A stretch of 32,000 nt of DNA from an uncultured Actinomycetota bacterium (GCA_963750295.1 CAVVPY010000001.1:1542782-1574781), one strand, 5' to 3'; shown: positions 8,475 to 31,763, numbered from the stretch's first letter. Numbers and translations: made by a program. The notes: generated from the sequence alone by a model not told the origin.

Positions 8475-8945
8475 TCAGCCGACTTCGGCGAGTCGCTGTC
8501 GGTTGGTCGCGCGGCGGACGGCGCCGGCTGGTCGGCGGGTACCTGGTTTGTAGACCGAGAGGACCACGGACAGCAGTGCCTTCGCGAGCGCGGTCGTGGC
8601 GATCAGACCGACCGTCCACACCTGCACGGTGCCGAGGATCCGGCAGGCCAGATAGAGCCCGACGACGCTCGCCGTCGTCAGCAGGTTCAGCGCGAACTTC
8701 TTGACCACCCAGCCCGTTCTGAGCAGCTGCCACGGTGAGGCAAGCGCGCACAGGACGCCCGCCACGAACGCCGCGCACACGGCGACCGCCAGCACGCCGA
8801 GCAACCGAACGACCATGGGCGCTTGGTCCACCGGAATCGTCAGGCCGGCGGACGTGATCACTGCGAGCAACGCGACCTCGAGCCCGATGCCGGCGGTCGA
8901 GGTGGCCACATGCACGGCGAGCAGGGCGCGGCGCAGGCCGGTCAC
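8475..8945 (-). CDS. Hypothetical integral membrane protein (about 4 TM helices), last gene of the PKS operon
   Basis: 156-aa ORF with a GTG start at 8945, 4 nt after the upstream stop. It has four long hydrophobic segments (ALLAVHVATSTAGIGLEVALLAVI, VVRLLGVLAVAVCAAFVAGVLCALA, FALNLLTTASVVGLYLACRIL, VWTVGLIATTALAKALLSVVLSV). Confidence 0.6.
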   Translation of the reverse strand: MTGLRRALLAVHVATSTAGIGLEVALLAVITSAGLTIPVDQAPMVVRLLGVLAVAVCAAFVAGVLCALASPWQLLRTGWVVKKFALNLLTTASVVGLYLACRILGTVQVWTVGLIATTALAKALLSVVLSVYKPGTRRPAGAVRRATNRQRLAEVG

Positions 8946-8949
8946 GACG

Positions 8950-9576
8950 TCACGATGCGCCGGCCAGGGTGACCGCCGACCGCGTCAGCTGCGGCGTCAC
9001 CGCGTCGTCGAGTACGAACCGGGCGACGTCGTCGACGCAGACCGCGGCATGGTTGACCTCACATCCCGCCTTCGAGATCGCGACCCCACGAACACCGCCG
9101 TCGCGCACGTTGGTGCACCGCACGAGCGTCCAGTCGTCACCGCGCCCGGTGAGCTCGTCCTCCATCCGCTCCATGTCGTTGAGAATGTTGCGCAGCCGCT
9201 TCTGGACTAGGAAGCGGAGCGCGAGCCGGCGCACGATCGAGATGTTGCGACTGATCTCCACCCCGGCGCTGGACAGCGCGACGATGCGAACCCCTGGAGG
9301 GACGGCATCGAGCAGGTTGGCCATGCCGTCGGACCGGACCACGGTGGAACCCGTCCCCCGCGATCCCACCGCGAACACCACGGCGTTCACATCCGCGGGG
9401 ATCTTCCAGGTGCGCTTCTCGTCGAGGACGTCGCCGACGACGACCTGCAAGCCGGGCGCCGCGGCCAGTCGGTGCGGGTCGCGAACGATTGCGGTCACCC
9501 GGTCACCGCGCCGGAGCGCGAGATCCAACACACGACGGCCGATGCGACCGGTCGCTCCCACTATGACGATGTGCAT
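8950..9576 (-). CDS. NAD(P)H-binding protein (atypical SDR / NmrA- or BVR-B-like reductase)
   Basis: MHIVIVGATGRIGRRVLDLALRRGDRVTAIVRDP contains the Rossmann GxxGxxG motif. It is 208 aa, and a GGAGGAG RBS precedes the ATG at 9576. Confidence 0.75.
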   Translation of the reverse strand: MHIVIVGATGRIGRRVLDLALRRGDRVTAIVRDPHRLAAAPGLQVVVGDVLDEKRTWKIPADVNAVVFAVGSRGTGSTVVRSDGMANLLDAVPPGVRIVALSSAGVEISRNISIVRRLALRFLVQKRLRNILNDMERMEDELTGRGDDWTLVRCTNVRDGGVRGVAISKAGCEVNHAAVCVDDVARFVLDDAVTPQLTRSAVTLAGAS

Positions 9577-9607
9577 GACTGCTCCTCCAGGTTCGGTTCG
9601 AGATCGG

Positions 9608-10078
9608 TCAGAGAGCCGGAGTCAGCGTGGCTGCGATCACCGCGCCGACCGCTGCGATTGCAGCCCATGTACGGACCTCATGGGCAACGTGCCAGTGCAC
9701 CCGCTTGCGGTCCCACCCCTCGGCGGTGCGCCGCGGGCTCCAGCGCTCGATCTGTCGCCAGATGGGCCGGTTGAAGCCTTCGGAGGTGATGCCGACGACC
9801 ACCATGCTCACCGAGGCGAGCACGAACAACACCGTCGCGAGCGGCGTCGAAGCGATCGCTGCGGCCCAGAGGCCGACCCCCGCCGCGATGACGCCGTTCC
9901 ACACCGCGATGGGGTGGAACATGTGCATGTCGATCAATTGGCACGTCGTGACGTAGCGGTTGTAGGGCAGCGAGTCGAGCATCGGGATGATTGACGTCTT
10001 CATGATCCACAGCGTCCCGAGCTGCACGCCGGCAGCGGCGAGCAGGTAGACGGCGAGCACGGTCTGGGCGGTATTCAT
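9608..10078 (-). CDS. DUF1772 (anthrone-oxygenase-like) integral membrane protein
   Basis: 156-aa protein with ~4 TM helices. Its layout (N-terminal TM, PMLDSLPYNRY loop, HPIAVWNGVIAAGVGLWAA, C-terminal RKRVHWHVAHEVRTWAAIAAVGAVIA) is typical of DUF1772. A GGAGG RBS precedes the ATG at 10078. The family assignment is by pattern recognition only. Confidence 0.55.
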   Translation of the reverse strand: MNTAQTVLAVYLLAAAGVQLGTLWIMKTSIIPMLDSLPYNRYVTTCQLIDMHMFHPIAVWNGVIAAGVGLWAAAIASTPLATVLFVLASVSMVVVGITSEGFNRPIWRQIERWSPRRTAEGWDRKRVHWHVAHEVRTWAAIAAVGAVIAATLTPAL

Positions 10079-10109
10079 GGTGTCCTCCGGAAGCGGATGG
10101 TTTCGGTGG

Positions 10110-10448
10110 TCAGGCGGGCGTCAGCGCGACGTCGCCGCCGCGCGTCTCGGCGTGCACCTCGAAGCGCATGGACGTGGCCTCGGCCATGCACTCGCGCATC
10201 GGGCGCACAAGGGTGCGGTGCGACGGGTCGCTCTCCCACGCCTCGAAGTGGGCGAGCGAGGTCCACTCGCTGGTGATGAGCCACTGCTCCGGGTCCTGCG
10301 CCGACCGACAGACCTGATCGACCACATGCCCGTCGACGCCGTTGGCGACGACGTAGCGGATCTGCTGGTAGGCAGCCAGGAACTCGTCAGTACGTGCTGC
10401 CGGGACACGGATCAGGAAGACGATGCGGGCGCTCGCACGGTCGTTCAT
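10110..10448 (-). CDS. Antibiotic biosynthesis monooxygenase (ABM; TcmH/ActVA-Orf6-like anthrone/quinone-forming oxygenase)
   Basis: 112-aa protein (RIVFLIRVPAARTDEFLAAYQQI...WLITSEWTSLAHFEAWESDPSHR), the ABM ferredoxin-fold pattern. Its ATG at 10448 overlaps the CLF stop (ATGA). The 303-aa extension to 11021 was rejected. Confidence 0.8.
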   Translation of the reverse strand: MNDRASARIVFLIRVPAARTDEFLAAYQQIRYVVANGVDGHVVDQVCRSAQDPEQWLITSEWTSLAHFEAWESDPSHRTLVRPMRECMAEATSMRFEVHAETRGGDVALTPA

Positions 10449-11695
10449 CGGTGGGCTCCTGCCGGGTCGGCTTCGCGCGGGGCGGTCAGCACGAGCGCGG
10501 AGTTGAACCCGTCGAACCCGCGGGCCCCGACCAGTGCGGTCGTGACGGGCGCGTCGACGGTGGCCGGGACGAAGGCGAGATCGCAATCCGGCGCCGGGTC
10601 GGCCGGGACGTAGGACCCGAGCATCGCGCCGCGATCGATGCTGAGCACGGCCTCCGCGGCGTCCAGCGCGCTGCCGCCCTGGTACAGCCTGCCGATCAGC
10701 GGCTTGTGCGTGCTCACGGGCACGTCGCGTCCTCTGAAGACCGAGTGCAGCGCAGCGGCCTCTGCCTGGTCGGCGTCGGGGACTCCGGCCGCATCGGGCA
10801 CCACGACGTCGACGTCGTCGGGGGTGACGCCGGCACGTTCGAGCGCCTGCTCCATGGCGCGGGCATAGTGGTTCGGCCAGGGGGCGCCTCGGGTGCCGGT
10901 GTGCGTCCCGTCGTGGGTCGCCGCGGCGCCCGCGAGCTCGGCGTAGATGTGCGCGCCGCGCGCGATCGCGTGGTCGCGGTCCTCGACCACGAAGACCGCG
11001 CCCCCCTCGCCCGGCACCCACCCGGTGGCGTTGCGATCGAAGGGCCGGTAGACGTCGGTGGCGCCGCGACTCGTCGCCAGCCGGCCGTGCGCGAGCTGGC
11101 AGGTCAGGGCGTAGGGCGACAGCGGGGCCTCGACGGCGCCCGCAAGCACGATCGGCGTTCCCCGGCGGACCGTCCGGGCGGCATGGGCCAGGCTGTCGAG
11201 CCCGCCGGCCGCCTCGGACACCACGACGGAACTCGGCCCCTTGGCCTGGTATGCGATCGAGACCTGCCCGACCGTGGCCGCGTAGAACCAGGCGATCGAT
11301 TGGTAGGCGCCGACGGTGCGTGCCGGGTCGGCCCAGAGTCGTTGCAGTTCGACCTGACCGAACTCGTTGCCTGCACTGGAGCTGGCCATGACGACGGCAA
11401 CGTCCGTCGGCGGGTGCTCGGACAGGTCCAGTTCGGCGTCACGCAGCGCCTGCCCGGTTGCCGACAGCCCGAGCCACGTCCAGCGGTCGGTCTGCACCGC
11501 GATCCGGCTTTCCACGTGCGACCGGACGTCCTCGCGGACTTCGCCGGCGACCTGGAGCGGATACTGGTCGGCGTCGAACCGGGTGATCCGGTCGATGCAG
11601 GATCGGCCCGCGGACACGGTGTCCCAGTGCTCGGCCGCGCCCGCACCGCTCGGGGCCAGGATCCCCACGCCGGTGATGACGGCTCCGGCGCTCAT
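10445..11695 (-). CDS. Type II PKS chain-length factor (KS-beta/CLF), with Ala at the conserved Gln position
   Basis: [24 protein letters not shown]...[40 protein letters not shown]...[15 protein letters not shown]...[11 protein letters not shown]. It has no active-site Cys, and its ATG at 11695 overlaps the KS-alpha stop (ATGA). Confidence 0.9.
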
Positions 11696-12966
11696 CGCGA
11701 GCCTCCCAGCGCGGTGAAGATCATCGCGGACTGGAAGCCACCGAAGCCGCTGCCGACGGACAGCGCTGCCCGTACCGACCACTCGCGTGCAGTGACCGGG
11801 ACGTAGTCGAGGTCGCACTCGGGATCGGCCACGGCGAGATTCGCCGTGGGCGGCACCACGCCGTACTCGACGGCGAGAGCGCAGGCGGCCATCTCGATGG
11901 AGCCGATCGCGCCCAGCGAGTGCCCGATCATCGACTTGATCGAACTCATCGGCGTCCGGTAGGCGTGTTCGCCCAGCGAGCGCTTGACCGCCGCCGTCTC
12001 GTGCCGATCGTTCTGCTTGGTTCCTGATCCGTGCGCGCTGATGTAGGAGATCTCGTCGGGATTGAGCCGCGCCTGGTGCAGCGCCTCGTCGATCGCCAGC
12101 GACATCTCCACGCCATCCGGACGAAGCCCCGTCATGTGGTAGGCGTTGCCACGACCGGCGTAACCGGCCACCTCGCAGTAGATGTGCGCGCCGCGTGCCC
12201 TCGCGTGCTCGTACTCCTCGAGAACCAGGACGGCGGCCCCCTCGCCCATCACGAAGCCGGACCGCCTCCGGTCGAACGGCTTCGAGGCGTGCTCGGGGTC
12301 GTCGTTGTCGGGCGTGGTCGCCCGGATCGCGTCGAACGAGGCGGCCGAGATCGGCGAGATCGGCGAATCGGACGCGCCGGCGATCACCACGTCCGCCTCA
12401 CCGTCCTGCACGAGGTGATGGGCGTAGCCGATCGCGTCGATGCCAGACGTGCATCCGTTCGAGACGACCTGAACCGGGCCGTGGGCGCCGAACCTGACCG
12501 CGACGTCGGCGGCCAGACTCGACGGCACGAGCGCCTGGTACAGGAAGCGCCCGGCGTAGTCGGCGTCCACCAGCCAGTCCCGGCCGCGGTCGCTGACGAC
12601 GACGAACTCGTCCTCGAGGCGCGTGGTGCCGCCGACGGCCGTGCCCAGGACGACCCCGGTGGACAGCGCGGTCGCCCCGTCGAACTCGAGCCCACTGTCC
12701 TCGACCGCTTCGAGCGCACCGGCCAGCGCGAACTGGATGTAGCGGTCCGAGCGGGCGACCTCGCGCGGTGACAAGCCGGCCTCGGCCGGGTCGAAGTCGC
12801 ACTCGGCACCGACCTGCGAGCGGAACGGCGCCGGGTCGAACAGCGAGATCCGCCTGGTTGCGGTACGTCCCTCGGTGATCGTCGACCAGAAGGCCTTGCG
12901 ATTCACCCCGCCCGGCGCGACGACGCCGACGCCGGTGACGACCGTGCGCCGGTTGTCGACCGTCAC
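11692..12966 (-). CDS. Type II PKS ketosynthase alpha (KS-alpha)
   Basis: [14 protein letters not shown]. The active site is [15 protein letters not shown], and the catalytic His motifs are [16 protein letters not shown] and [14 protein letters not shown]. The GTG start at 12966 overlaps the cupin stop (GTGA). Confidence 0.95.
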
Positions 12967-13385
12967 GGCGTCACCGCCTGGGCCATGAGCGCCGCGGCCT
13001 CCTCCTTGGTCTCGGTGTCGACGTGACCCAGGTCGGGGCGGGGTGCGAGCGGGCCGCAGTGGAACACGGCGCGCGCAGTCGTTGCGTGCGGGTTGCGCAG
13101 CCGGTGCCGGACGAATTTCGGCACCATCACGGCCTCGTCGACCTCGAGTCGGCGCGACTCGCCGTCGAGGTCGATATCGAGGGTGCCCTCGATGACGCAG
13201 AGGAACTCCTCCGAGTACGGGTGGTAGTGCTCGGCCACCGCCTCGCCGGGCTCGACGATGACGATGCCCATGAACCCGGACGTGCTGGCGACAGTTGCCG
13301 GGCCGAGCAGGACGCGGACGTCTCCGCCGCGGCGCGTGTTGTGCGGCGCGGACGAGAGCCCGACGGTCGGGACGGTGGTCGACAT
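12963..13385 (-). CDS. Cupin-fold polyketide accessory protein (TcmJ / WhiE-ORFII-like)
   Basis: 140-aa protein with a cupin core ([40 protein letters not shown]...[13 protein letters not shown]). It lies immediately 5' of KS-alpha, as in the tcm and whiE clusters. A GAGAGG RBS precedes the start. Confidence 0.8.
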
Positions 13386-13400
13386 GATGGTGTGCCTCTC

Positions 13401-14118
<718 letters not shown>

Positions 14119-14122
<4 letters not shown>

Positions 14123-15483
14123 GCTGCTTCCTCCTTTGGGTTGCACATCCGGTCGACGAGACCGGTGCTGTGGGTTGCCGTGCTGAACTGTGGATGCGCG
14201 AGAACGTCACGCAGGAACGGGATCGTGGTGCGGACGCCCGGACCGTCGACGGCGAACTCGGCCAGCGCGCGGTCCATCCGGTCGATGGCCTGGACCCGGT
14301 CCGGGGCCCAGGTCACCACCTTCGCGATGAGCGAGTCGTAATGGGGACCGAGGACGTAGCCGGGGTAGGCATGCGTGTCCACGCGGATGAAGGGACCGCC
14401 CGGTACGTCGAAGCGCTCGAGCCGGCCGGGCGTGGGCAGGAAACCGCGCGCGGGATCCTCGCCGTTGACGCGGCATTCGACGGCGTGCCCGGCGAAGGTG
14501 ACATCGGCCTGGCGGTAGGGCAACGGCCGTCCGGCAGCGGCGAGGATCTGCTCCCGGACGAGGTCGAAGCCGGTGATCATCTCGGTGACCGTGTGCTCGA
14601 CCTGGATGCGGGTGTTGATCTCCATGAAGTAGTAGCGGCCCTGGCCGTCGAGCAGGAACTCGAACGTCCCGACGCCGGTGTAACCGACGGCGAGGGCCGC
14701 CCGCAGCGCAGCCTCGTTGATTTCGCGCGAGGTCTCGGGCGACAGGTCCGGAGCGGGCGCCTCCTCGACGAGCTTCTGGTGGCGTCGCTGGACCGAGCAG
14801 TCGCGCGTACCCAGCCAGACGCCGTTCCCGTGCTCGTCGCACAGAACCTGCACCTCGATGTGCCGCGCGTCGGCCAGGTAGCGCTCGGCGTACACGCGCT
14901 CGTCGCCGAACACCGAGGCCGCCGTACTGCGGGCCCGAGTGAATGCCTCGGTCAGGTTCTCGCGACGCTCGACGACCGCCATCCCCTTGCCGCCGCCGCC
15001 GGCCACCGCCTTGATGATGACGGGGAACCCGATCTCGTCGACGACCTCGTGCAATTGCGCCGCACCGGTCAGCGGCTCGACCACGCCGGGCAGAAGGGGA
15101 AGCCCCTCGGCCGACATGATCTGCCGCGCGGCGGACTTGTCGCCGAGGCGTCCGATCAGGCCAGGCTCGGGGCCGATGAACGTCAGCCCGTACTCGGCGC
15201 ACATCTCAGCGAAGTCAGGATCCTCGGAGAGGAACCCATAGCCCGGATGGACGCCGTCTGCGCCGGTCTGCAACGCGGCCTCGACGACCGCGGCGTGATT
15301 CTGGTAGCTGCGACGGCTGGGGGCCGGCCCGATGTGCACGACGTGGTCGAAGTGCCGCGCCTGCCTCGGGTCGAGGTCGGGCGTGGACGCGACCCCGACG
15401 GTCTCGATGCCCATCTCGGCGCACGTCCGGGCCACCCGCAGCGCGATCTCGCCGCGGTTGGCGATGAGGATCCGCTCGAACAC
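14119..15483 (-). CDS. accC: Biotin carboxylase subunit of acetyl-CoA carboxylase (stand-alone AccC type)
   Basis: (M)FERILIANRGEIALRVARTC...GYGFLSE...PVIIKAVAGGGGKGMAVV...YFMEINTRIQVEHTVTE. It is 454 aa with no fused BCCP. The GTG start lies 3 nt after the BCCP stop. Confidence 0.9.
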
Positions 15484-15486
15484 GGC

Positions 15487-16056
15487 TCAGCCCTCCTCGA
15501 CCGAATCGGGACGGATGCGCACCAGCGGCTGGTCGAACTCGACCGGGGCACCATCGCCGACGAGGACGTCGAGGACCTCACCGGAGATCTCGGCCTCGAT
15601 GTTGTTCAGCAGTTTCATCGCCTCGACGATCCCGATGGTCTGGCCGGCCGCGACGCACTGGCCGACCTCGACGAACGGCGGCTCACCGGGGCTCGGGGCG
15701 CGGTAGAACGTCCCGACCATCGGGGACCTGACGGCGACACCATCGACCGACACGTCCTCGGGGACGACCGTCGGCTGAGCAGCGACAACGTGCGGGGACA
15801 CGGCTTCCACCGGGACCGCGGGCGCCACCGATGGGACCGGCACGGCGACAGCCGCCGTGGTGCCGAAACCGCCGACGGGAGCAGGCGCAGGATGTTCCCA
15901 CTCGACCTCGACGACGACGTCGCCCGACGACAGCCGCACACGACGCAGCGGTCCGTCCACGTCCTGGGCGAGAGCACGCAACTCCTCGCCCAGGCGCAGC
16001 AGCGCGTCCTGCTCGCCGGCGTTGCTCGCTCGGTTCTCCGCCGTCGCGGTCATCAC
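15487..16056 (-). CDS. accB: Biotin carboxyl carrier protein (AccB type)
   Basis: The C-terminal biotinyl domain is [51 protein letters not shown] (biotin-Lys in EAMKL). An Ala/Pro/Val-rich linker precedes it. The start is GTG 16056 (GTGA overlap) or ATG 16053. Confidence 0.9.
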
Positions 16057-22658: not shown

Positions 22659-23054
22659 ATGATCGACCACCCGCACGTGCAGTTGATGGAGAAGGTGTAC
22701 GCAGCCTTCGGAAGCGGCGACGTCGCGACCGCCGGCAGCTACTGGACCGAGGACGCCGTCCACCACTATCCGGGACGCAACCCGTTGTCCGGAGACCACA
22801 AGGGCCTGGACGAGTCGATCGCATTCGCCAACAAGATCTTCGAACTCACCGAGGGCAAGTTGCGCATGCAGACCCTCGAGATCGGCGCGAGCGACACCCA
22901 TGCCTTCGCCATCCTCGACACGCACTACGAGCGCAAGGGACGCGTGCTCGACATGCCGTTCATCAACGTCGCCCGTATCGAGGACGGCAAGATCGCCGAG
23001 TTCTGGACCTATCCCGAGGACGTCTACGCCACCGATGAGTTCTGGAACGCCTGA
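22659..23054 (+). CDS. NTF2-like / SnoaL-like (ketosteroid-isomerase fold) protein
   Basis: 131-aa protein (LMEKVYAAFGSGDVATAGSYWTEDAVHHYPGRNPLSGDHKG...VARIEDGKIAEFWTYPED), the typical SnoaL_2/NTF2 pattern. A GGAGAGGA RBS lies upstream of the ATG. Confidence 0.7.
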   Translation: MIDHPHVQLMEKVYAAFGSGDVATAGSYWTEDAVHHYPGRNPLSGDHKGLDESIAFANKIFELTEGKLRMQTLEIGASDTHAFAILDTHYERKGRVLDMPFINVARIEDGKIAEFWTYPEDVYATDEFWNA

Positions 23055-23084
23055 GCGTTCCGGACACCGAGAGGATCCGAGATC

Positions 23085-24524
23085 ATGAGCCACATCATCG
23101 TAGTCGGCGGAAGCGTCGCCGGGCTCTCCGCGGCGGCCATGCTGGCCGACCAGGGTCACCGCGTCACGGTCCTGGAACGCGCGGCCGACCCGGGGGCGCA
23201 ATCACTCGCCGACGCGGCCGCCCGGCATCGCCCGACCGCGCCGCAGTACTCGCACTCGCACGCTTTCGCGTCGCTGTCCGGTAAGGAACTGCGCAACCGC
23301 TTGCCGGACGTCGCGCACACCCTGGCCGCGGTCGGGTGCGGTGAGGTCTTCCTCGCTGACTACCTGCCGCCGACGCTCGAGGCCTACGAGCCGCAGCCGG
23401 CCGACCGTGAGCTGCGCATGACACTGGCCCGCCGCTCGACCTTCGAACTGGTGCTCCGCGAACGCGCACTGGCGCGTTCCGGCGTCGAACATGTCAGCAA
23501 CGTGCGCGTCGTCTCGCTGCTCACCGACGCCGAGCATCCGGTGCGGGTCGTCGGCGTGACCGCCGCCGACGGCCGGAGTTGGTCGGGCGACCTGGTCGTG
23601 GACGCGACCGGCCGCCGGACCAACGGAGCCGACTGGCTGGCCCGGGCCGGCCTGCCGGCGCCGCAGACCGAGTCGAGCAGTAGCCGGATCGTCTACTACA
23701 CGCGCCACTACCAGCAGCTCAGCCCGCGTCCCGGTGGCCCGCTCAACCGCGGCTTCGGTGCCGGCGGCCTGTGGAACCACTACACCGCCGTGTTGTTCCG
23801 CGGTGACAACGGGAGCTTCTCGATCAGCATCGGTGTGCTGCCCACCGACGAGGCGATGCGAGCGCTCCGGGATCCCAAGGCGTTCACCGCCGCCGTCACC
23901 GCCACCCCCCTGCTCGCCGGCTGGCTCGACCCAGAGGTCTCCGCACCTACCTCGGACGTCGAGGTGATGGGCGGGCTCGACAACGCGATCATGCTTCCGC
24001 CCTCCGAGGCTCCGGTCGGCTTCCTCGCTGTCGGTGACTCCGTGTGCACGACCAACCCCGCTTACGGCCGCGGCGTCTCCCTCGCGTTGTCCGAGGCCGG
24101 TCTGCTCGCCGACGTGCTCGAAGAGTTCGGCGCCATCGATGGATTGTCGACCGCCGCCTACTGGCAGCGGGTCGAGCAACTGGTTCGACCGTGGTACGCC
24201 GAGGCCGTCACCAACGACCTGGGTCGCGCCATGCTGTGGGAAGCCACGCTGGCCGGCCGGCCCCTTGGCCGTCCGCCGCAGGGTGTGATCACCTTCGGCG
24301 CCGCGGTTGCCGCGTCCACCCGCGACCCCGAGATCTGGCGTCGCGTTGCCCGCACCATGATGATGCTCGCGCCGCCGTCCACGCTCTATGCGGACCCGGA
24401 GATCGCGGCGCGGATCGGCCGCGCCCTGGCCGGCGGACCGCCGCCGGAGCTTCCGGGCGCCACGCGCGACGAGCTGCTCGCCGCGATCGGAGACGACACC
24501 GTTCGGCTGGCCAGGTCGGCCTGA
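23085..24524 (+). CDS. FAD-dependent oxidoreductase / monooxygenase-like protein
   Basis: The N-terminal dinucleotide-binding motif is IIVVGGSVAGLSAAAMLADQGHRVTVLER. Later motifs are VVDATGRR and AVGDSVCTTNPAYGRGVS (GD motif). It is 479 aa, with a GAGAGGA RBS. Confidence 0.75.
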   Translation: MSHIIVVGGSVAGLSAAAMLADQGHRVTVLERAADPGAQSLADAAARHRPTAPQYSHSHAFASLSGKELRNRLPDVAHTLAAVGCGEVFLADYLPPTLEAYEPQPADRELRMTLARRSTFELVLRERALARSGVEHVSNVRVVSLLTDAEHPVRVVGVTAADGRSWSGDLVVDATGRRTNGADWLARAGLPAPQTESSSSRIVYYTRHYQQLSPRPGGPLNRGFGAGGLWNHYTAVLFRGDNGSFSISIGVLPTDEAMRALRDPKAFTAAVTATPLLAGWLDPEVSAPTSDVEVMGGLDNAIMLPPSEAPVGFLAVGDSVCTTNPAYGRGVSLALSEAGLLADVLEEFGAIDGLSTAAYWQRVEQLVRPWYAEAVTNDLGRAMLWEATLAGRPLGRPPQGVITFGAAVAASTRDPEIWRRVARTMMMLAPPSTLYADPEIAARIGRALAGGPPPELPGATRDELLAAIGDDTVRLARSA

Positions 24525-24526: not shown

Positions 24527-25225
24527 ATGACGACGCAGCCCGCTCGCGGCGCTCGGACCGCGTTCGCCGTCCCGGCGAGCACGATCGCGGCGGGCCGCGT
24601 CGCCGTACTCGGATCGACCGGAGGGACCGGCCGCGCCGTGATCGACGCGGCGCTGCGCGGCGGTCATCATGTCTCAGCCGCCGCGCGCCGTCCCGAGGAT
24701 CTCGCCGCCCGCTCCCGCCTGCGAACAGTGCGCGCGGACGTCGTCGACGGCAGCGGCGTCGACGAGGTGATCGCCGGTGCCGACGTGGTTGTCTCCGCGC
24801 TCGGGATCGGCATGCGCCGGCACGCGACCGAGGTCTACTCGCAAGGGGCGCGACACACCATCGACGCGATGCTCCGGCACAACGTCAGCCGGCTGGTGGT
24901 CATCTCGACCTCGTCGCTCGGCCCCCCGCCGCGGCGGCTGACCCTCGCTTGGTGGGTCGACCGTGGCCTGCTGCAACCACTCCTGCGCAAGCCCTACCAG
25001 GACATGCGGGCAATGGAGTCCCTGGTTCGCGAGTCCGGGCTGGCGTGGACGCTGCTCCGCGCCGCCCGGCTGACCGACGGACCGGCCGTCGGTCGCTACC
25101 GGTTGAGCGCGTCCGGACGCCTGGCCGGCGCATGGTCGATCTCGCGCGCCGACCTGGCCCACGCCGCCCTCGACCTTGCCTCCAGGGACGATGCGGCAGG
25201 TCGGACCTACGACATCGCCTACTGA
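24527..25225 (+). CDS. NAD(P)H-binding protein (atypical SDR / NmrA-like)
   Basis: The ATG at 24527 lies 2 nt after the upstream stop. RVAVLGSTGGTGRAVIDAALRGGHHVSAAARRP is a Rossmann motif. It is 232 aa. The 393-aa extension to 24044 was rejected. Confidence 0.75.
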   Translation: MTTQPARGARTAFAVPASTIAAGRVAVLGSTGGTGRAVIDAALRGGHHVSAAARRPEDLAARSRLRTVRADVVDGSGVDEVIAGADVVVSALGIGMRRHATEVYSQGARHTIDAMLRHNVSRLVVISTSSLGPPPRRLTLAWWVDRGLLQPLLRKPYQDMRAMESLVRESGLAWTLLRAARLTDGPAVGRYRLSASGRLAGAWSISRADLAHAALDLASRDDAAGRTYDIAY

Positions 25226-25500: not shown

Positions 25501-26238
25501 TCAGCGCACGTGCCGAACGTCGCCGGCGCTGACCTCGCGGGGGCCGTCCCCGGTCTCGATCACCAACATCCCGGATCCAGAAATCGCCGACGCCTTCCCG
25601 TGCAACTCACCGTCGGCCGACTCGACGACAATCACGCGGCCGATCGTGGCGCACCGTGACCGGTAGGTCTCGAGCAACCCCGAACCTGCGGCGTCCCCGC
25701 CGGCATCGATCAGGGCGTCGTACTGGCGTGCCAGCGCCGCCAGCACATCGGAAAGTAACCCGTCGGCATCCGTATCGCCGGCTCCGGCGATTGCCAGCGA
25801 TGTCGAATCGCGCACCGGCAGTTGCTGCGCCGTCTGGGTGACGTTGACGCCGACGCCGACGACCACCGCGTCGCCGCGCGCCTCGGTAAGGACGCCCGCG
25901 ATCTTGGCGTCGCCGACGAGCACGTCGTTGGGCCATTTCACGGCGACCATTGCCACGCGCGCGTCGAGCGCCTCGGTCACGGCCAGGCCCGCCAGCGGCG
26001 TGAGCCAGGCCCACGCCGAGGTGGGAAGCGGCGGCCGCAACCGGATGGAGAACAGCAGCGACGAACGGGCGGGAGCCTCCCAGCTGCGGTCGAAGCGTCC
26101 GCGCCCGGCCGTCTGGTGAGCGGCGACGAGGACCTCGCCGGCAGAGCCGCCGACGTCGGCGAGCAGATCGGAGTTGGTCGAGGCGGTCTCGTCGACCCGC
26201 CGCAGCGGGCCGAGGCTGGGTGGCAGGACCACGGTCAT
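25501..26238 (-). CDS. birA: Biotin--[acetyl-CoA-carboxylase] ligase (group I BirA, no N-terminal HTH)
   Basis: DETASTNSDLL...VLVAAHQTAGRGRFDRSWEAP (GRGRxxRxW)...AVKWPNDVLVGDAKIAGVLTE (KWPND)...VVGVGVNV. 245 aa. Confidence 0.85.
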   Translation of the reverse strand: MTVVLPPSLGPLRRVDETASTNSDLLADVGGSAGEVLVAAHQTAGRGRFDRSWEAPARSSLLFSIRLRPPLPTSAWAWLTPLAGLAVTEALDARVAMVAVKWPNDVLVGDAKIAGVLTEARGDAVVVGVGVNVTQTAQQLPVRDSTSLAIAGAGDTDADGLLSDVLAALARQYDALIDAGGDAAGSGLLETYRSRCATIGRVIVVESADGELHGKASAISGSGMLVIETGDGPREVSAGDVRHVR

Positions 26239-26248: not shown

Positions 26249-26929
26249 CTAACGAGCGCGGACGCGTGGCGGCACCCATCGGGCGGCGTGGGCGACGGAC
26301 AGGACGAGCCCGTCGCAGACCTGCCAGCGGCCCGGGACGCCGTCGCGTAGCCGTCGCGGCGGCGTCGTGCCGGCGGCGAAGTCGACGAGGAACGTCTCGC
26401 CAGGGCCGAGGTCCACTCGCATGTCGGCGATCCCCAGCACCCGGCCGGTCACCGGATGCCACACCTTGAACGCTGCTTCGCGACAGCCCCACAACACGGT
26501 CGCTGCCAGGCCCGGGTCGACGCCCCCACGGACGAGGGCCGCTCGAGCGTTCCCGCGCTCGTCGGCGTCCAGGCGCGCGTCGACCGCCGCGGGCAAGGCG
26601 ATCGCCGGCGTCGCGTCAATCCCGATCGTGCCGACCTCCGCGCGCCGGCCGACAGCTGCGGCCACGAACCCCTCGCAGTGGGTGATGCTGCCCGTCGTGC
26701 CTGGCGGCCACTGCGGGCTGCGGTCTGCGGCGCGGCCGACCGTCCGCTGCGCGACACCGAGCCGTGCGAGGGCCTGCGCGGCGCACGCACGTCCTGCCTC
26801 GAACTCTGCGCGGCGCTTCGACGTCGCCCGCTCCAGTCCGTTCGGACCAGCGTCGGCGACCGGGAGGTCGAGGTGGGCGCGACGCTCGACGGCGACCACA
26901 CCGGGTGGCAACAGGCCGTCGAGCAGCAC
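26249..26929 (-). CDS. 4'-phosphopantetheinyl transferase (Sfp/EntD type)
   Basis: KRRAEFEAGRACAAQALARLG, PQWPPGTTGSITHCEGFVAAAV, IGIDATP and VLWGCREAAFKV correspond to the EntD/Sfp-type motifs. The GTG start at 26929 is uncertain. Confidence 0.8.
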   Translation of the reverse strand: MLLDGLLPPGVVAVERRAHLDLPVADAGPNGLERATSKRRAEFEAGRACAAQALARLGVAQRTVGRAADRSPQWPPGTTGSITHCEGFVAAAVGRRAEVGTIGIDATPAIALPAAVDARLDADERGNARAALVRGGVDPGLAATVLWGCREAAFKVWHPVTGRVLGIADMRVDLGPGETFLVDFAAGTTPPRRLRDGVPGRWQVCDGLVLSVAHAARWVPPRVRAR

Positions 26930-26994: not shown

Positions 26995-27864
26995 TCAATG
27001 GCGTCCGGCCAGCCAGTGGCCGAGCTGCATCACCTGCGAGACGTCGGAGGAGCACGGGGTGAGCACCAGCTCGTCGCAGCCGGCGGTCTCGAACTCGTCG
27101 GCGACGCGCGACAGGCCGTCCTGGCCGATGGCGGCGTTGGCGAGGACCGCCTGCGCGTACGGCGGCGCGAAGCCGTAATAGTCGCGCAGATACGCGCCGG
27201 CCGTCTCCGCCGCAGCGTCCCCGAGCGCGAAGTAGGCCAGGGCGATCAGGCGCGGCCGGTCGGTGCGACCGGCCGCCTGCCAGGCCTCCCGAACGGCGAC
27301 CGCGCCACCGCGAAACATGCCGGGCCCGCCGCTTCCGGAGATCCAGCCGTCACCGAACCTGGCGGCACGGGCGATCGCCCGCGCAGCCTGGCCGCCGACG
27401 ACGAGCTGCGGCCCGCCCGCACGCCCCGGCTCAGGGCCGACACCGCCGGCGAAGCCGCGACGCTCACCGCCCCAGAGGCGGGGCAGCTCCTCGAGCTGCG
27501 CGTCGAGCAGGTCACCCCGGCGCGCGTGGGGCACGCCGCTTGCCCGGAAGTCGTCCGGTCGCGCACCGGCCGCGACGCCGAGCGTCAGCCTGCCACCGCA
27601 CAGCCGGTCGACGGTGGCAGCCTGCTTGGCGAGCAGCGCGGTGTTCGAGCGCAGCGGCGCGATCATCACCGACGTCATCAGTGGCTTGTCCGACACCGCG
27701 GCCGCGGCCGCGAGCGTCGTCAGGCAGTCGTAATTCTCGTAGACCAGGCGGTCGGTCGTCGCGAGGCACGAGAAGTCGGCTTGCGAGCCGATGACCGCCC
27801 ATCGCACCAGGTCGGCGGCCTCGGTCTTCGGTACTGCGTTGGGCAGTCCCAGTCCGATCTTCAT
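26995..27864 (-). CDS. Luciferase-like monooxygenase (LLM) class flavin/F420-dependent oxidoreductase
   Basis: MKIGLGLPN...ATTDRLVYENYDCLTTLAAAAAVSDKPLMTSVMIAPLRSNTALLAKQAATVDRLCGGRLTLGVAAGARPDDF is the typical LLM TIM-barrel pattern. 289 aa. Confidence 0.7.
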   Translation of the reverse strand: MKIGLGLPNAVPKTEAADLVRWAVIGSQADFSCLATTDRLVYENYDCLTTLAAAAAVSDKPLMTSVMIAPLRSNTALLAKQAATVDRLCGGRLTLGVAAGARPDDFRASGVPHARRGDLLDAQLEELPRLWGGERRGFAGGVGPEPGRAGGPQLVVGGQAARAIARAARFGDGWISGSGGPGMFRGGAVAVREAWQAAGRTDRPRLIALAYFALGDAAAETAGAYLRDYYGFAPPYAQAVLANAAIGQDGLSRVADEFETAGCDELVLTPCSSDVSQVMQLGHWLAGRH

Positions 27865-27906: not shown

Positions 27907-28293
27907 TCAGCCGCCGACCGGCTCCAACGGCGCGTCGTGCCGGCGTGACAGCACGCACTCGAGCGCGGCATCGCGGAAGAACGCGCGGGCGCCTTCGGGG
28001 CTGCGCATGTCCCGCGGCTGCGACAGGTGCTCCTCGAGCTCGTCCTCGAAGGCGCGCACCTCGGCCTGGCGGCCCATGTGCGACGCGACGAGCGGGAGCG
28101 GCCCGTCGACCTCGATGACCCGAACCGCCATCTGCTTGCCGACGAAGGCCATCGTGCCGAGCAGCCTGCCGACGACGTTGCCGTCGGCATCCGCGACATC
28201 GAACGACGGACGGCCGCTACGCCGGAAGAGGTCCTTGACGGCCTCCTCGCTACCGGGCTTGAGCGGGTAGAAAAGTGCGTGCCACGTGGACAT
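27907..28293 (-). CDS. Small SchA/CurD-like domain protein (spore-pigment-cluster-associated family); assignment tentative
   Basis: The ATG at 28293 has a GGAGG RBS. The 128-aa sequence is MSTWHALFYPLKPGSEEAVKDLF...AVRVIEVDGPLPLVASHMGRQAEVRAFEDELEEHLSQPRDMRSPEGARAFFRDAAL. This matches my recollection of the SchA/CurD (PF04486) pattern. The extension to 28713 was rejected. Confidence 0.5.
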   Translation of the reverse strand: MSTWHALFYPLKPGSEEAVKDLFRRSGRPSFDVADADGNVVGRLLGTMAFVGKQMAVRVIEVDGPLPLVASHMGRQAEVRAFEDELEEHLSQPRDMRSPEGARAFFRDAALECVLSRRHDAPLEPVGG

Positions 28294-28334
28294 CGTTAAA
28301 CCTCCGTTGTCGGGACTGACGCCGTGTTCAGACG

Positions 28335-29138
28335 TCATTGACTGGCGGTGACCCCGCCGTCGATGTAGACGATCTGGCCGTTGACGAACGCGCCTGCGGG
28401 CGAAAGCAGGTAGCGCACGGCGCCGGCGATGTCGTCGGGTTCGGCGAAGCGGCGCAGCGGGATGCGCTGCTTCATCCGCGCGACGAGAGTCTCGTCGGCG
28501 TTCGCGCCGGGCACGAATCCGGTGGGGACGAAGCCCGGCGCGACGGCGTTGACCGTGATGCCGTACGGACCCCACTCGGTCGCGAGCTGGCGCACGAGCA
28601 GGTCGAGGCCGGCCTTGGCCGCGCCGTAGGCACTGAACCCGCCGGGTGCGCCGACCGAGCCGCGCACGGACGACAGATGCACGATGCGGCCGGTTGTGCC
28701 GGCGTCGATCCACCGGCGCGCGACGGCCTGCGAGAGGAGGAACGGGCCGACGAGATTGGCCTCGACGACGTCGCGGAACGCCTCCTCGGGGAATTGCTCG
28801 GCCGGGTGGATCCGCAGCGTGCTAGCGCAGTTGACGACGAGATCTACCGGCCCCAGCGCGCTCTCGACGGCCTCCAGGGACGTCTCGACGCTGACGCGAT
28901 CGCACACGTCCTGCCCGACACCGACGGCCCGCGCGCCGCCGCCGGCATTCTCGAGTTCGGCGGCCAGGGCGCGAGCCCGGTCGCCGTCCCGCCCGGCCAC
29001 GGCGACAGCGGCACCGTGCGCGGCGAGGTCTGCGCTGACGGCGGACCCGATGCCGCCGTAGCCGCCGACGACCAGCGCGACCGCGTCGCGTAGCAGGGCG
29101 GGGTCCGCCGCTACCGCGCGCTCCGTGCTCGCGGTCAC
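28335..29138 (-). CDS. Short-chain dehydrogenase/reductase (SDR; candidate polyketide ketoreductase)
   Basis: The cofactor motif is ALVVGGYGGIGSAV, the catalytic motif is SAYGAAKAGL (YxxxK), and the C-terminus is NGQIVYIDGG. The GTG start at 29138 overlaps the amidohydrolase stop (GTGA). The extension to 29615 was rejected. Confidence 0.8.
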   Translation of the reverse strand: MTASTERAVAADPALLRDAVALVVGGYGGIGSAVSADLAAHGAAVAVAGRDGDRARALAAELENAGGGARAVGVGQDVCDRVSVETSLEAVESALGPVDLVVNCASTLRIHPAEQFPEEAFRDVVEANLVGPFLLSQAVARRWIDAGTTGRIVHLSSVRGSVGAPGGFSAYGAAKAGLDLLVRQLATEWGPYGITVNAVAPGFVPTGFVPGANADETLVARMKQRIPLRRFAEPDDIAGAVRYLLSPAGAFVNGQIVYIDGGVTASQ

Positions 29139-30136
29139 CGGGCCACCGCGGGCTCGAGCGCGAACAGGCGCGCGGCGTTCGCGCCCATGATCGCCGTGCG
29201 GTCGTCGCCGTCGAGGTCGAGGGCGTCGATCATGCCGATCGCGTCGGCCAGGTCCGTGGCCAGCGGTGGACTGTCGGTGCCGAAGAGGACGTGCTCGGCG
29301 CCGAACAGCCGCACCGCTGCCGCGAGCGCGATCGCGCTCGGGGTCGCCGTGTCGACGTGGATCCTTCGGACCGTCTCGGCCATCGGGGACCGGTGCGCGC
29401 CGACCGGCTTCGCGCCCGGAGGTCCACCCGTGCCGGGCGGCGGTCCACCTGCCCCCGGAGGCGGTCCGCCGGCGGAGCGGCGATCGGCGAGTGCCAGCTT
29501 CTCCGCCAGCAGCGGCAGGGCCCCGCCGACGTTCGGCGCGATGAGGGTGAGCTCCGGGAACCGATCGAACCAGCCGCCGGCCAGCACCGCGGCGACACCG
29601 GCGGTGGTGTCGCACGGCCGGAGCACGTGCTCCACGAGGCCGGCCTCACCGGCCAGCGCGGACGCGCCGACCGGTTCGGCGGGCGGGTGCAGCAGGACGG
29701 GCACCCGCCGCTCGGCCGCGAGCGCGAAGAACGATTCCGCGGCTGGATCGTTCAGGTAGCGCCCGCGGACGCTGGTGTTCGCGATCAGCCCGACGAACTC
29801 GGGCTCGTCCAGCCACCCCGCGGCGAGGTCGAGGGTTGTGTCGGTCGCGAACGGGTTTACGTAGACGTAGGCGCGCAGGTGCGCCGGGCGCATTCGCACC
29901 TGGTCGGCCACCCAGGAGTGGAAGCGTTGCAACCCGTCGACCGGCTGGTCGTAGTTGTCGAGACCGGGGACGGGAACCATCGTCCCGGCGCCGACCGGGC
30001 TGCCGACGACGGTGAGATCGATGCCGTGCGCGAGCTTGGCCTCGATCATGCCGTCGATGTCGGCGAGGCTGCGCGGCATCGGGAACCGATCGAAGAGTTC
30101 CGGTGAGGTGATATGGCCGTGGACGTCGACGTTCAT
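29135..30136 (-). CDS. Amidohydrolase-2 family protein (ACMSD/decarboxylase-like TIM barrel) with an internal Gly/Pro repeat insert
   Basis: MNVDVHGHI (HxH metal site)...PVLLHPP...LFGTDSPPL (conserved C-terminal Asp). 333 aa. Confidence 0.75.
   Translation of the reverse strand: MNVDVHGHITSPELFDRFPMPRSLADIDGMIEAKLAHGIDLTVVGSPVGAGTMVPVPGLDNYDQPVDGLQRFHSWVADQVRMRPAHLRAYVYVNPFATDTTLDLAAGWLDEPEFVGLIANTSVRGRYLNDPAAESFFALAAERRVPVLLHPPAEPVGASALAGEAGLVEHVLRPCDTTAGVAAVLAGGWFDRFPELTLIAPNVGGALPLLAEKLALADRRSAGGPPPGAGGPPPGTGGPPGAKPVGAHRSPMAETVRRIHVDTATPSAIALAAAVRLFGAEHVLFGTDSPPLATDLADAIGMIDALDLDGDDRTAIMGANAARLFALEPAVAR
29411..29470 (-). repeat. In-frame tandem repeat encoding GGPPPGA-GGPPPGT-GGPPGA inside the amidohydrolase gene
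   Basis: The minus strand reads GGC GGA CCG CCT CCG GGG GCA / GGT GGA CCG CCG CCC GGC ACG / GGT GGA CCT CCG GGC GCG. These are three imperfect 18-21-nt units. Confidence 0.85.
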
Positions 30137-30190
30137 GGACGGGATCCCTCGGGTCGGGGCTAACGGGACGGTGACAACGCGGCGCGCGGG

Positions 30191-30679
30191 TCAGGCGCGC
30201 GGTGGGCCCAGTACTTGGCCGCCGTAGCGGGCGACGGCGGCGATGACCTCGCCGAAGTCGGGGAACCGCGAGACGTCGAAGGTGGGCACCTCGAGGCTCG
30301 TGGCGGGCTCGCCCGTCTCGAAGAACCATCCGTCGAATCCGCCAGGAGTGCCGAGCACCAGCCAGCGCGCCTGCTCGGACTCGACCTTGTACGAGTGCGG
30401 AACGTCGCGTGGCGCGAACACCGTCTGCCCCGGCTCGGGATCGTAGGTCCGATCGCCGATCTCGAGACTGAGACGCCCCTCGAGGACGTGGAAGGTCTCG
30501 TCCTCGCGGGAGTGCACGTGGACGGGCGAGGCGTAGTTCGAGCGCGAGGTCTGCTCGGCCAGCCAGAATGCGTTGCCCGACTGCTCGCTCGTCACGTGGA
30601 ACACCATCAGTGCACCCATGTGCCAGATGGCCTTGCCGGTGGTCGGGCTGGTCAGAAGCGGTGCGGCGACGCTGGTCAT
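30191..30679 (-). CDS. Cupin domain protein
   Basis: 162-aa protein with a cupin core (SPVHVHSREDETFHVLEGRLSLEIGDRTYDPEPGQTVFAPRDVPHSY). Confidence 0.7.
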   Translation of the reverse strand: MTSVAAPLLTSPTTGKAIWHMGALMVFHVTSEQSGNAFWLAEQTSRSNYASPVHVHSREDETFHVLEGRLSLEIGDRTYDPEPGQTVFAPRDVPHSYKVESEQARWLVLGTPGGFDGWFFETGEPATSLEVPTFDVSRFPDFGEVIAAVARYGGQVLGPPRA

Positions 30680-30734
30680 GTGGGCTCCTCAGGGCCGACG
30701 GGCGGATGTTGGCGGGACGGGGATCGGGTGGGCC

Positions 30735-31763
30735 TCACGCGGACGGGACGAGCACGAGCTTCCCGGTGACGTGCTGGTGTTCCAGTCGCTGCTGCGCCTC
30801 TGCGGCTCCGGCCAGCGGGACGGTGCCCGCGAGCACCGGTTCGATGGCCCCCCGCGACAGCAGGTCGAATACCGTGCCGAGATCTTCGCGGTACGCCGTG
30901 GGCTGCTTCTTCTCGAGCGCCCACGCGTTGTAGAAGGTCGTCCGCTTGCCGTCCGGGATCAGCTTCGGGGCCGCGATGCCGAGCAGGAATCCCTTCGCAC
31001 CCACCGAGCGGAGCACCTGCCCGTCCACGACGGCGGCGCTCTGGCCGTAGGCGACCATGATCCCTCCGCGTTCGAGCGCGGCGTAGGAACGGCGGAAGTG
31101 CGCGCCGCCGATCGGGTCGAACACGGCGTCGACCTGCCCATCGACGCTGCGGACGACCTCGACGGCGTCCTGCGTGTGGTAGTCGATCGGGTGCACACCA
31201 AGATCGGTGAGCAGGCCGAACTTGCCCGGCGACGCGGATCCCCAAACCTCGACTCCAGCCCGGCGCGCGAGCTGGCAGAAGGCCAGCCCGACACCGCCGG
31301 ACGCGCCGTGGACGAGGATGCGCGAGCCGGGGCCGACCTGCGCGACCCGGAAGAGCATCTGCTGGGCGATGTAGTAGTTCAGCGCCACCGCACTGGCTGC
31401 CACGGGCTCGACGCCGGCCGGCAGCGGGACCAGGCGGTCGGCGGCGACGAGCGCGTACGAGGCGTAGCCGCCCTGCCTGACGAGCGCTGCGACCGCGGTC
31501 CCCGGCTCGAGGCCGGTCACCCCTTGGCCGACGGCGACGACGGTGCCTGCGACATCGAAGCCCGGGGTGAACGGCGGTTTGGGTGCGCCCGGAATCACTC
31601 CGCGCGCCAGCAGGATGTCGCCGAAGGAGACTCCGGCGGCCTGGACCCGGACGAGGGCCTGCCCCGGACCGGGCGTAGGAGCCGCTTCACGCACGACCGT
31701 GAGGGTCTCCGGGCCGCCGCGTCGGGTTGAGACAACGGCTTCGAGCGTCGTGGTCTGGGTCAT
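30735..31763 (-). CDS. Medium-chain dehydrogenase/reductase (quinone oxidoreductase / zeta-crystallin-like, NADPH-dependent)
   Basis: The ATG at 31763 has a GAGGA RBS. The sequence includes LEAVVSTRRGGPETLTVVREAAPTPGPGQALVRVQAAGVSFGD..., the cofactor motif ILVHGASGGVGLAFCQLA, and a C-terminal ...HVTGKLVLV. The extension to 31952 was rejected. Confidence 0.8.
   Translation of the reverse strand: MTQTTTLEAVVSTRRGGPETLTVVREAAPTPGPGQALVRVQAAGVSFGDILLARGVIPGAPKPPFTPGFDVAGTVVAVGQGVTGLEPGTAVAALVRQGGYASYALVAADRLVPLPAGVEPVAASAVALNYYIAQQMLFRVAQVGPGSRILVHGASGGVGLAFCQLARRAGVEVWGSASPGKFGLLTDLGVHPIDYHTQDAVEVVRSVDGQVDAVFDPIGGAHFRRSYAALERGGIMVAYGQSAAVVDGQVLRSVGAKGFLLGIAAPKLIPDGKRTTFYNAWALEKKQPTAYREDLGTVFDLLSRGAIEPVLAGTVPLAGAAEAQQRLEHQHVTGKLVLVPSA

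Follow-up and report, generated by a model that had tools for sequence, protein, structure and literature searches.

The stretch of DNA analysed here (the window; 32,000 nucleotides from an uncultured Actinomycetota bacterium, GCA_963750295.1, CAVVPY010000001.1:1542782-1574781) very probably carries, between position 8475 and about 31950, an intact orphan type II aromatic polyketide synthase (PKS) cluster, which falls in one clade with the fkm cluster of Frankia, clusters of Micromonospora and the "whiE-like" clusters of Pseudonocardiaceae, has the gene order normal for that clade, and is predicted to make an acetate-primed, unreduced polyphenol of about 24 carbons (C24). The product is probably a pigment-like polyphenol controlled by the adjacent two-component system. 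The gene map was built from frame analysis by G+C at third codon positions (GC3), from Pfam, NCBIfam and PDB comparisons, and from the gene calls on an identical public contig of 8 kb (Logan contig ERR11523665, L085), which was the source of gene calls for several starts. Because the G+C content of the window was about 70%, the raw lists of open reading frames (ORFs) were crowded with spurious frames. All the parts listed in a first-pass annotation of the window were found at or inside 8475-31763 by Pfam or PDB comparison, and its claim that the cluster has its own carboxylase, biotin ligase, phosphopantetheinyl transferase (PPTase), E1α/β pair and two-component system was borne out by domain matches. 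The map added a second cupin, an Amidohydro_2 protein, a luciferase-like monooxygenase (LLM), a quinone oxidoreductase (QOR), two NmrA-like reductases, a SnoaL-like protein, a MonCI-like flavoenzyme and two small membrane proteins (memA and memB) to that list.

The ketosynthase pair marks the system as an aromatic PKS. KSα (11692-12966, minus strand like all genes of the PKS operon; PF00109/PF02801) retained an intact Cys-His-His triad, with Cys172 in the CTSG motif, His312 and His349, and matched act KSα (1TQY_A) at E=4e-165, compared with about 1e-95 for FabF enzymes. Its partner, the chain length factor (CLF, or KSβ; 10445-11695), lacked the active-site Cys and was closest to the act CLF (1TQY_B, 5e-91), and its start overlapped the KSα gene as ATGA. 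The discrete acyl carrier protein (ACP; 13862-14122; PF00550, 1e-9) carried the DSL phosphopantetheine site (LGLDSL), and its start was set from 86-aa orthologues and the ATGA overlap with the biotin carboxylase (BC) gene. Since KSα matched act KSα far better than FabF and was paired with a Cys-less CLF, the system is an aromatic PKS and not a fatty-acid system, which agrees with the first-pass description of a Tcm/WhiE-type PKS for an unreduced chain. An origin of the KS/CLF pair in a fatty-acid or polyene-type type II system would find its support in the NCBIfam scan, in which KS and CLF gave only sub-threshold FabF-family matches and the cyclases gave none, so that the scan carried little information. 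Besides the scores above, the pair was embedded among TcmI-, TcmJ- and WhiE/TcmN-type cyclases, and no set of ketoreductase (KR), dehydratase and enoylreductase genes was present in the operon, which makes that origin so improbable that we regard it as refuted.

The six core genes were arranged in the order TcmI-type cyclase, ACP, aromatase/cyclase (ARO/CYC), cupin, KSα and CLF. The first-pass annotation had described this order accurately, with ACP and ARO/CYC upstream of cupin-KS-CLF and TcmI set apart by three carboxylase genes, and it was also right that the order differs from those of Streptomyces tcm and whiE: among the 80 loci fetched for comparison, the 13 Streptomyces whiE-type loci read SchA-cupin-KSα-CLF-(ACP)-ARO-TcmI. 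What did not hold was the novelty ascribed to this architecture as non-canonical, since the core order is that published for fkm and recurred, complete or in part, in 16 fetched loci from Micromonospora, Frankia, Geodermatophilus, Trujillonella, Lentzea, Kibdelosporangium and several metagenome-assembled genomes (MAGs), 11 of which also had the three acetyl-CoA carboxylase (ACC) genes between TcmI and ACP/ARO. Four Micromonospora loci, Frankia sp. Cas4 (L005), Geodermatophilus and Trujillonella showed the order TcmI-CT-BCCP-BC-(ACP)-ARO-cupin-KSα-CLF, where CT is the carboxyltransferase and BCCP the biotin carboxyl carrier protein; other Frankia loci and one MAG showed that order without ACC. 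In the locus of the closest KSα relative (L001, 86% identity), the order of the window was kept exactly from SnoaL-E1β-E1α via the histidine kinase (HK), the response regulator (RR) and TcmI to memB. Three further loci (L082-L084), from Lentzea nigeriaca, Kibdelosporangium phytohabitans and a JGI metagenome contig (KSα 78-80%), had the same PKS operon, E1 operon and LLM-QOR gene set, with protein identities mostly of 57-80%, and the "whiE-like" clusters of the two named species belong to the same family as the window, all three modules corresponding gene for gene.

A neighbour-joining tree was made of the concatenated KSα and CLF proteins. It placed the window and L001 beside the Pseudonocardiaceae loci; the sister group of these was formed by the Frankia and Micromonospora loci, while Streptomyces whiE and the remaining groups of aromatic PKSs stood well apart, so that the window fell inside the fkm-containing clade. 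Because fkm and the Micromonospora, Frankia, Geodermatophilus, Trujillonella and Pseudonocardiaceae loci share the gene order, it is normal for the lineage and has been on record since frankiamicin was published in 2015, and the architecture is of little note in itself. The Micromonospora version is already labelled "frankiamicin-like" by antiSMASH.

The fkm cluster of Frankia sp. EAN1pec is ordered fkmC3 (TcmI), fkmC (ACP), fkmC1 (TcmN), fkmC2 (TcmJ), fkmA and fkmB, and its product, frankiamicin A, is a pentangular C24 polyketide assembled from 12 intact acetate units (PMC4383371, Ogasawara et al. 2015). The published order, read from the table of that paper, was identical to that of the six core genes of the window, and both clusters belong to the same KSα/β clade, have no KSIII or adenylation starter machinery and have a LuxR-type regulator upstream. 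The window differs from fkm in the three ACC genes inserted between TcmI and ACP, in having one ABM monooxygenase rather than the trio of a KR and two ABMs, and in lacking the Roadblock, DUF742 and GTPase regulators. It adds the DUF1772-like protein, NmrA, E1αβ, SnoaL, the MonCI-like flavoenzyme, LLM, SchA, a short-chain dehydrogenase/reductase (SDR), a decarboxylase-like protein, a second cupin, QOR, the biotin ligase BirA and a PPTase. How far the cluster repeats a characterised one, a point raised by the first-pass annotation, is thus answered in two parts: the six-gene core was syntenic with fkm-type Frankia loci at 43-75% identity, while about 20 other genes had no fkm counterpart. A BenL/PdmG-type C-6 KR and two adjacent PdmH/PdmI-like ABMs after KSβ are given as the hallmarks of pentangular systems (PMC4383371), and since this KR/ABM set was not evident, the window was filed as a relative of fkm and not as a frankiamicin cluster; its product may not be pentangular. 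As judged from these comparisons, order and clade both separate the cluster from the whiE type, and its tailoring set separates it from the frankiamicin clusters; phylogeny, gate residues and core synteny assign it to the fkm-containing clade.

The predicted chain length was derived from the CLF. Subtracting 8 from the chain index gave the act KSβ numbering, which was verified at F109, T112, F116, Q161, W194 and G195. In this numbering the gate residues of the window CLF were N109, G112, L116, I133, A139, T140, Y194 and A195, which are also those of the CLFs from Frankia and Micromonospora (where residue 140 is S or T), and the identity with the Frankia loci examined included N109. A chain of about C24 was predicted because of this identity. 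The pattern I/V-A-S/T at KSβ positions 133/139/140 has been reported for all systems with chains of at least 24 carbons, and N109 and R118 of KSβ have been listed as unique to Frankia (PMC4383371). The window CLF fitted the former pattern and carried both of the latter residues, R118 being shared with one of the three Frankia loci examined. From these signatures, the all-acetate origin of frankiamicin A and the ARO/CYC and SDR matches given below, we infer an acetate-primed chain of about C24, unreduced at C-9 and folded by the ARO/CYC, the TcmJ cupin and the TcmI cyclase.

Several points weigh against this reading of the cluster and its product. The window CLF lacked the Gln usually credited with decarboxylative priming: the position of act Gln161, where that residue was looked for, was occupied by Ala (residue 162). 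The same position was A, S, T or G throughout the clade (L001-L016, L060 and L082-L084), Glu in the Streptomyces whiE-type CLFs and Gln in 28 of the remaining CLFs in the comparison. This A/S/T/G variation spanned the whole fkm/Micromonospora/Pseudonocardiaceae/Geodermatophilaceae clade, and because the trait belongs to the clade as a whole, including the fkm-type loci of Frankia that were examined, the loss of Gln is no bar to membership among the aromatic PKSs; a literature search for Gln-less CLFs in spore-pigment systems gave nothing specific. Chain length and ring pattern are taken from residue signatures and one characterised relative, the literature searched having given no product for the family. 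The tree was a simple neighbour-joining one without bootstrap and without MIBiG references, and the identities of the window to the Frankia loci examined were 75% for KSα and 56-58% for CLF, the EAN1pec fkm sequences not being among them. The fkm-type C-6 KR and paired PdmH/PdmI-like ABMs were not evident in the window, in which a single ABM follows the CLF. Finally, E1αβ, SchA, memB, LLM and QOR have no assigned role in the pathway proposed below.

The PKS operon consisted of 13 co-directional genes, from 18124 down to 8475, in the order TcmI, AccDA, AccB, AccC, ACP, ARO/CYC, cupin, KSα, CLF, ABM, memA, NmrA and memB. Eight of the 12 junctions overlapped (seven as ATGA/GTGA and one as TGATG) and the largest gap was 31 bp, so the genes form one translationally coupled operon. 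Its first gene encodes the ferredoxin-fold, TcmI-type polyketide cyclase (17792-18124; PF04673, 1e-38; TcmI structure 1TUW, 3e-21), and the stop of this gene overlaps the start of the CT gene as ATGA. The ARO/CYC (13401-13862; PF03364/PF10604) is a single-domain protein of 153 aa of the WhiE-VI/TcmN type, for which the top three PDB chains were 3TL1, 3TVR and 2KF2 (about 4e-56), followed by TcmN (5e-44; 2RER, 7e-44), ZhuI (8e-10) and BexL (2e-6). The first three are entered as "polyketide cyclase", which we take to be the WhiE ARO/CYC. Directly upstream of KSα, and in the same position as fkmC2, lies the TcmJ/WhiE-II-type cupin cyclase (12963-13385; PF07883, 2e-16). The ABM-family monooxygenase (10110-10448; PF03992, 3e-13) is of the quinone-forming type. 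Both the ABM and the TcmI genes were buried in longer spurious ORFs of the raw list and became clear with the right start. The NmrA-like NAD(P)H-binding reductase of the operon spans 8950-9576 (PF13460, 7e-29).

The ACC encoded in the cluster was of the multi-subunit E. coli type. It consists of a CT with fused β and α parts (AccD-AccA; 16053-17795; PF03255, 1e-104; PF01039, 6e-38) that has the AccD zinc ribbon (PF17848, 2e-7), a BCCP (15487-16056; PF00364, 9e-19) with the EAMKL biotinylation motif, and an AccC-type BC (14119-15483; PF02786, 2e-69; PF00289; PF02785). BirA without a helix-turn-helix domain (25501-26238, minus strand; PF03099, PF02237) and a Sfp-type 4'-phosphopantetheinyl transferase (26249-26929, minus strand; PF17837, 2e-22) sit between the divergent E1 operon and the LLM-QOR module; no counterparts of these two were found in the relatives' loci examined. 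Together, ACC, BirA and the PPTase would give the cluster its own supply of malonyl-CoA and its own means of activating holo-proteins. Malonyl transfer would be borrowed from fatty-acid synthesis, because no malonyl-CoA:ACP transacylase gene was identified among the window ORFs scanned.

In the pathway that we propose, the E. coli-type ACC, biotinylated by BirA, would supply malonyl-CoA and the PPTase would make holo-ACP, on which KSα/CLF would build an unreduced poly-β-ketone, primed with acetate and about 24 carbons long. The WhiE/TcmN-type ARO/CYC would then close and aromatise the first rings by C9-C14 logic, and the TcmJ cupin and the TcmI cyclase would close the later rings to give a tetracenomycin- or pentangular-type polyphenol. 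The ABM and the DUF1772-like oxygenase could form the quinone, and the conserved reductases, the flavin monooxygenase/SnoaL pair and the LigW/IDCase-like decarboxylase could tailor the product.

The divergent operon on the plus strand was ordered E1α, E1β, SnoaL, MonCI-like flavoenzyme and NmrA. E1α (20439-21440; PF00676, 2e-76; start from L085) is a thiamine pyrophosphate (TPP)-dependent dehydrogenase subunit resembling those of pyruvate dehydrogenase (PDH) and acetoin dehydrogenase (PDB, PDH E1α, 3e-57), and E1β (21498-22571; PF02779, PF02780) is its partner. Neither the scanned ORFs of the window nor the genes in the relatives' loci contained an E2 or E3 domain. In at least six genera (Actinokineospora, Lentzea, Plantactinospora, Actinosynnema, Amycolatopsis and Actinoplanes), orthologues of E1α and of KSα shared contigs, so E1αβ is a stable member of the family. 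The operon continues with a SnoaL_2/NTF2-like protein (22659-23054; PF12680, 5e-16), a 479-aa FAD-dependent monooxygenase that resembles the epoxidases MonCI and Lsd18 (23085-24524; PDB MonCI, 3e-18; Lsd18/LasC, 4e-17) and the second NmrA-like NAD(P)H-binding reductase (24527-25225; PF13460, 6e-38; gene call in L085). The SnoaL-like protein and the flavoenzyme (22659-24524) look like an epoxidase and epoxide-opening pair inside an aromatic PKS cluster, SnoaL/NTF2-like proteins being the fold class of the epoxide-opening partners of MonCI/Lsd18 epoxidases. In one Mycobacteriales MAG (L007) the flavoenzyme-SnoaL pair lay directly after ABM.

The redox/decarboxylase module on the minus strand was ordered LLM, SchA, SDR, Amidohydro_2, cupin and QOR. 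It comprises the LLM (26995-27864; PF00296, 6e-25), the SchA/CurD (WhiE-ORFI-like) protein (27907-28293; PF04486, 9e-31; 128-aa gene call in L085), the SDR oxidoreductase, a presumed tailoring enzyme (28335-29093; PF13561, 3e-55), the Amidohydro_2 protein (29135-30136; PF04909, 1e-19), the second cupin (30191-30679; PF07883, 3e-14) and QOR of the Zn-ADH/quinone oxidoreductase family (30735-31763, ORF to 31952; PF13602, PF08240, PF00107). The SDR was the sole one, was placed outside the PKS operon and was 33% identical to the Frankia KR in L006. Reading it as an ActKR-type enzyme was rejected, as its best PDB matches were gluconate 5-dehydrogenase and FabG and ActKR was absent from the best 60; because the SDR is of this generic type, a chain without C-9 ketoreduction remains the likely reading. 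The Amidohydro_2 protein was closest in the PDB comparison to the non-oxidative decarboxylases IDCase (2e-11), LigW (2e-7) and ACMSD, resembles an aromatic-acid decarboxylase and may take off the polyketide's terminal carboxylate. In Frankia, decarboxylated congeners of frankiamicin (G-2N) are known.

In the Lentzea, Kibdelosporangium and JGI loci (L082-L084; L086 was compared as well), the LLM-QOR module follows memB, with a berberine bridge enzyme (BBE) oxidase gene in between, and TcmI is preceded by a gene for an F420H2 quinone reductase. In the window the module is relocated relative to these loci and lies beyond the E1 operon, beside the BirA-PPTase pair. Genes for the BBE oxidase and the F420H2 quinone reductase were not found in the window, and a remnant sought to the left of memB was not found either. 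The linkage of the E1 and LLM-QOR modules to the PKS is kept across genera despite this rearrangement, which argues that they are functionally linked to it.

With regard to its role, the cluster could be the functional equivalent of Streptomyces whiE, that is, it could make a cell-associated pigment of spores, hyphae or sporangia for protection against UV or oxidative damage instead of a diffusible antibiotic. Such a role agrees with the biosynthetic reading given above, and we consider it nearly as plausible as its opposite. As with whiE in Streptomyces, the family is widely conserved, here over many genera and with high synteny; a SchA/CurD gene is present; the best PDB matches of the ARO/CYC, presumably WhiE, rank ahead of TcmN; and domain scans of the window ORFs found no transporter, resistance, glycosyltransferase or methyltransferase gene. 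The type II PKS cluster kal21 of Kutzneria albida, which probably belongs to the same family as the window, has likewise been described as whiE-like (PMC4210621). On the other hand, fkm, the sole characterised member of the clade, gives a soluble pentangular compound recovered from the culture supernatant, the KSα/CLF pair is phylogenetically apart from Streptomyces whiE, and a two-component system takes the place of a developmental (whi-type) regulator.

A further question is how the chain is primed, since E1αβ might transfer an acyl-TPP group from a 2-oxo acid to ACP/KS and so make up for a CLF without the priming Gln. Besides the Ala at position 161, this route would fit the absence from the window of E2 and E3 and of KSIII, an adenylating enzyme or other known starter machinery, and the position of E1αβ, which adjoins the PKS in the window, L001 and L082-L084 and shares its contigs in further genera. 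However, CLFs with A, S or G at this position are likewise encoded in loci of Frankia, Micromonospora and Geodermatophilaceae in which no E1 gene lies within 10 kb, frankiamicin derives from 12 intact acetates, and the Streptomyces whiE-type CLFs examined carry Glu and not Gln, while whiE still makes C24 chains. E1αβ is also co-operonic with tailoring-type genes and not with the minimal PKS, and the literature searched gave no precedent, so that we judge this priming route very unlikely. More likely than a new priming route is that E1αβ adds to the acetyl-CoA supply by way of the host's E2/E3, or that it takes part in TPP-dependent tailoring. In a broader form, in which the E2-less E1αβ is a dedicated part of polyketide assembly that either passes an acetyl starter from a 2-oxo acid to ACP/KS or performs TPP-dependent C-C chemistry on the scaffold with the SnoaL and MonCI-like partners, the idea is still unlikely; a literature search on E1 or acetoin dehydrogenase genes as parts of type II PKS clusters gave nothing specific. 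If true, it would mean a tailoring or priming logic undescribed for type II PKSs and a new scaffold in many rare actinomycete genera. The same gene content could instead be divided among two or more independent loci lying side by side, with the true biosynthetic gene cluster limited to the 13-gene PKS operon and with E1αβ, BirA, PPTase and LLM-QOR serving other metabolism. That the relatives' loci lack counterparts of BirA and PPTase, that the LLM-QOR module is placed differently in Lentzea, Kibdelosporangium and the JGI contig, and that fkm clusters work without the E1αβ, BirA, PPTase and LLM-QOR genes would all agree with such a division. It is nevertheless quite unlikely, as the linkage of E1αβ-SnoaL-flavoenzyme-NmrA and of LLM-SchA-SDR-Amidohydro_2-cupin-QOR to the PKS operon persists from genus to genus, proteins of the SchA/CurD, SnoaL, cupin and ABM types are typical aromatic-polyketide tailoring families, and the flavoenzyme-SnoaL pair of L007 directly follows ABM.

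Read as a single aromatic PKS cluster, the locus is a target for genome mining, as a complete and self-sufficient orphan cluster with its own ACC, BirA and PPTase. Its family spans Pseudonocardiaceae, some Micromonosporaceae and related MAG lineages; the literature searched gave no characterised product for the cluster family of the Pseudonocardiaceae relatives, and the product of one expressed member would assign a product to dozens of clusters. The family also bears on type II PKS priming without the CLF Gln, on the role of an E2-less E1αβ in an aromatic pathway and on whether membrane DUF1772 proteins act as bacterial anthrone oxygenases.

Comparison with other named systems placed the cluster further. 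The whiE/sch/cur systems share with it SchA/CurD, cupin, KSα, CLF, ACP, a monodomain ARO/CYC and a TcmI-like cyclase for an unreduced long chain, and both groups are widely conserved within their own lineages. Apart from their own gene order, these systems differ in forming a separate KSα/CLF clade and in having Glu instead of Ala at position 161, and the whiE-type loci examined had no ACC, E1, BirA or PPTase, unlike the window. The tcm cluster resembles the window in its TcmI, TcmJ and TcmN-N-terminal-type cyclases, its TcmH-like ABM oxygenase and its unreduced chain, but its product is a C20 decaketide, whereas the gate residues of the window fit C24 or longer; its gene order is different, and the ARO/CYC of the window has no fused O-methyltransferase. 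The persiamycin cluster (per) of Streptomonospora sp. PA3, compared by its description only, has TcmI/J/N-type cyclases, a three-part ACC (perHIJ) and a 151-aa DUF1772 protein adjoining the KS genes, in common with the window; its glycosylation genes and SARP/MarR regulators are not present in the window (PMC7296137).

The integral membrane protein memA (9608-10078), of 156 aa with four transmembrane segments, is a candidate divergent DUF1772/anthrone-oxygenase homologue, seen only through a bridging Streptomyces homologue. When memA, memB and eight orthologues were compared with Pfam at E values up to 5, no meaningful match was obtained. The memA profile aligned with a protein of a Streptomyces type II PKS locus (L053) at 97% probability in hhalign (E=4e-11), and that protein in turn matched PF08592 (anthrone oxygenase/DUF1772) at 1e-10, so that the link to the family is indirect; two UniRef names also read DUF1772. 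Mean column identity among the memA orthologues was 81%. A profile search gave at least 227 homologues, of which the named ones came from genomes that also carry a KSα orthologue, on contigs that match in length. memB (8475-8945), likewise an integral membrane protein of 156 aa without Pfam match, is encoded by the last gene of the operon, and its position was kept in L001 and L082-L084 at 36-57% identity. The two proteins were not detectable paralogues.

The two-component genes lie upstream of the PKS operon on the same strand. They encode a NarL/LuxR-type RR (18406-19077; PF00072, 2e-28; PF00196, 1e-17) and an HK of the HisKA_3 type (19074-19799, with an uncertain start and an ORF extending to 20012), whose own matches to PF07730 and PF13581 were marginal and whose orthologues have HisKA_3 and HATPase_c. 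The HK was 34-37% identical to its Lentzea and Kibdelosporangium orthologues, and the partner RR 63-64%.

On the right, the border of the cluster lies beyond the window, as the first-pass annotation had stated: about 50-240 bp separate the end of QOR from that of the window, and the relatives carry more genes past QOR. The left border was set at memB (8475). Next to it, at 7636-8370 on the minus strand, lies an ORF with flat GC3 and only marginal Guanylate_cyc/AAA_16 matches, which may be what is left of a large regulator gene that has decayed on the left edge of the cluster. The left flank (1-7684) is unrelated to the cluster and contains an ApbE fragment, an LPG_synthase_TM membrane protein, an 820-aa BNR/Asp-box repeat protein (2091-4553, minus strand) and a 595-aa protein (5897-7684, plus strand) with only a marginal PQQ_2 β-propeller match. 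Between 4544 and 5860 the G+C content was lower (about 0.665), and the ORFs there had no family match.

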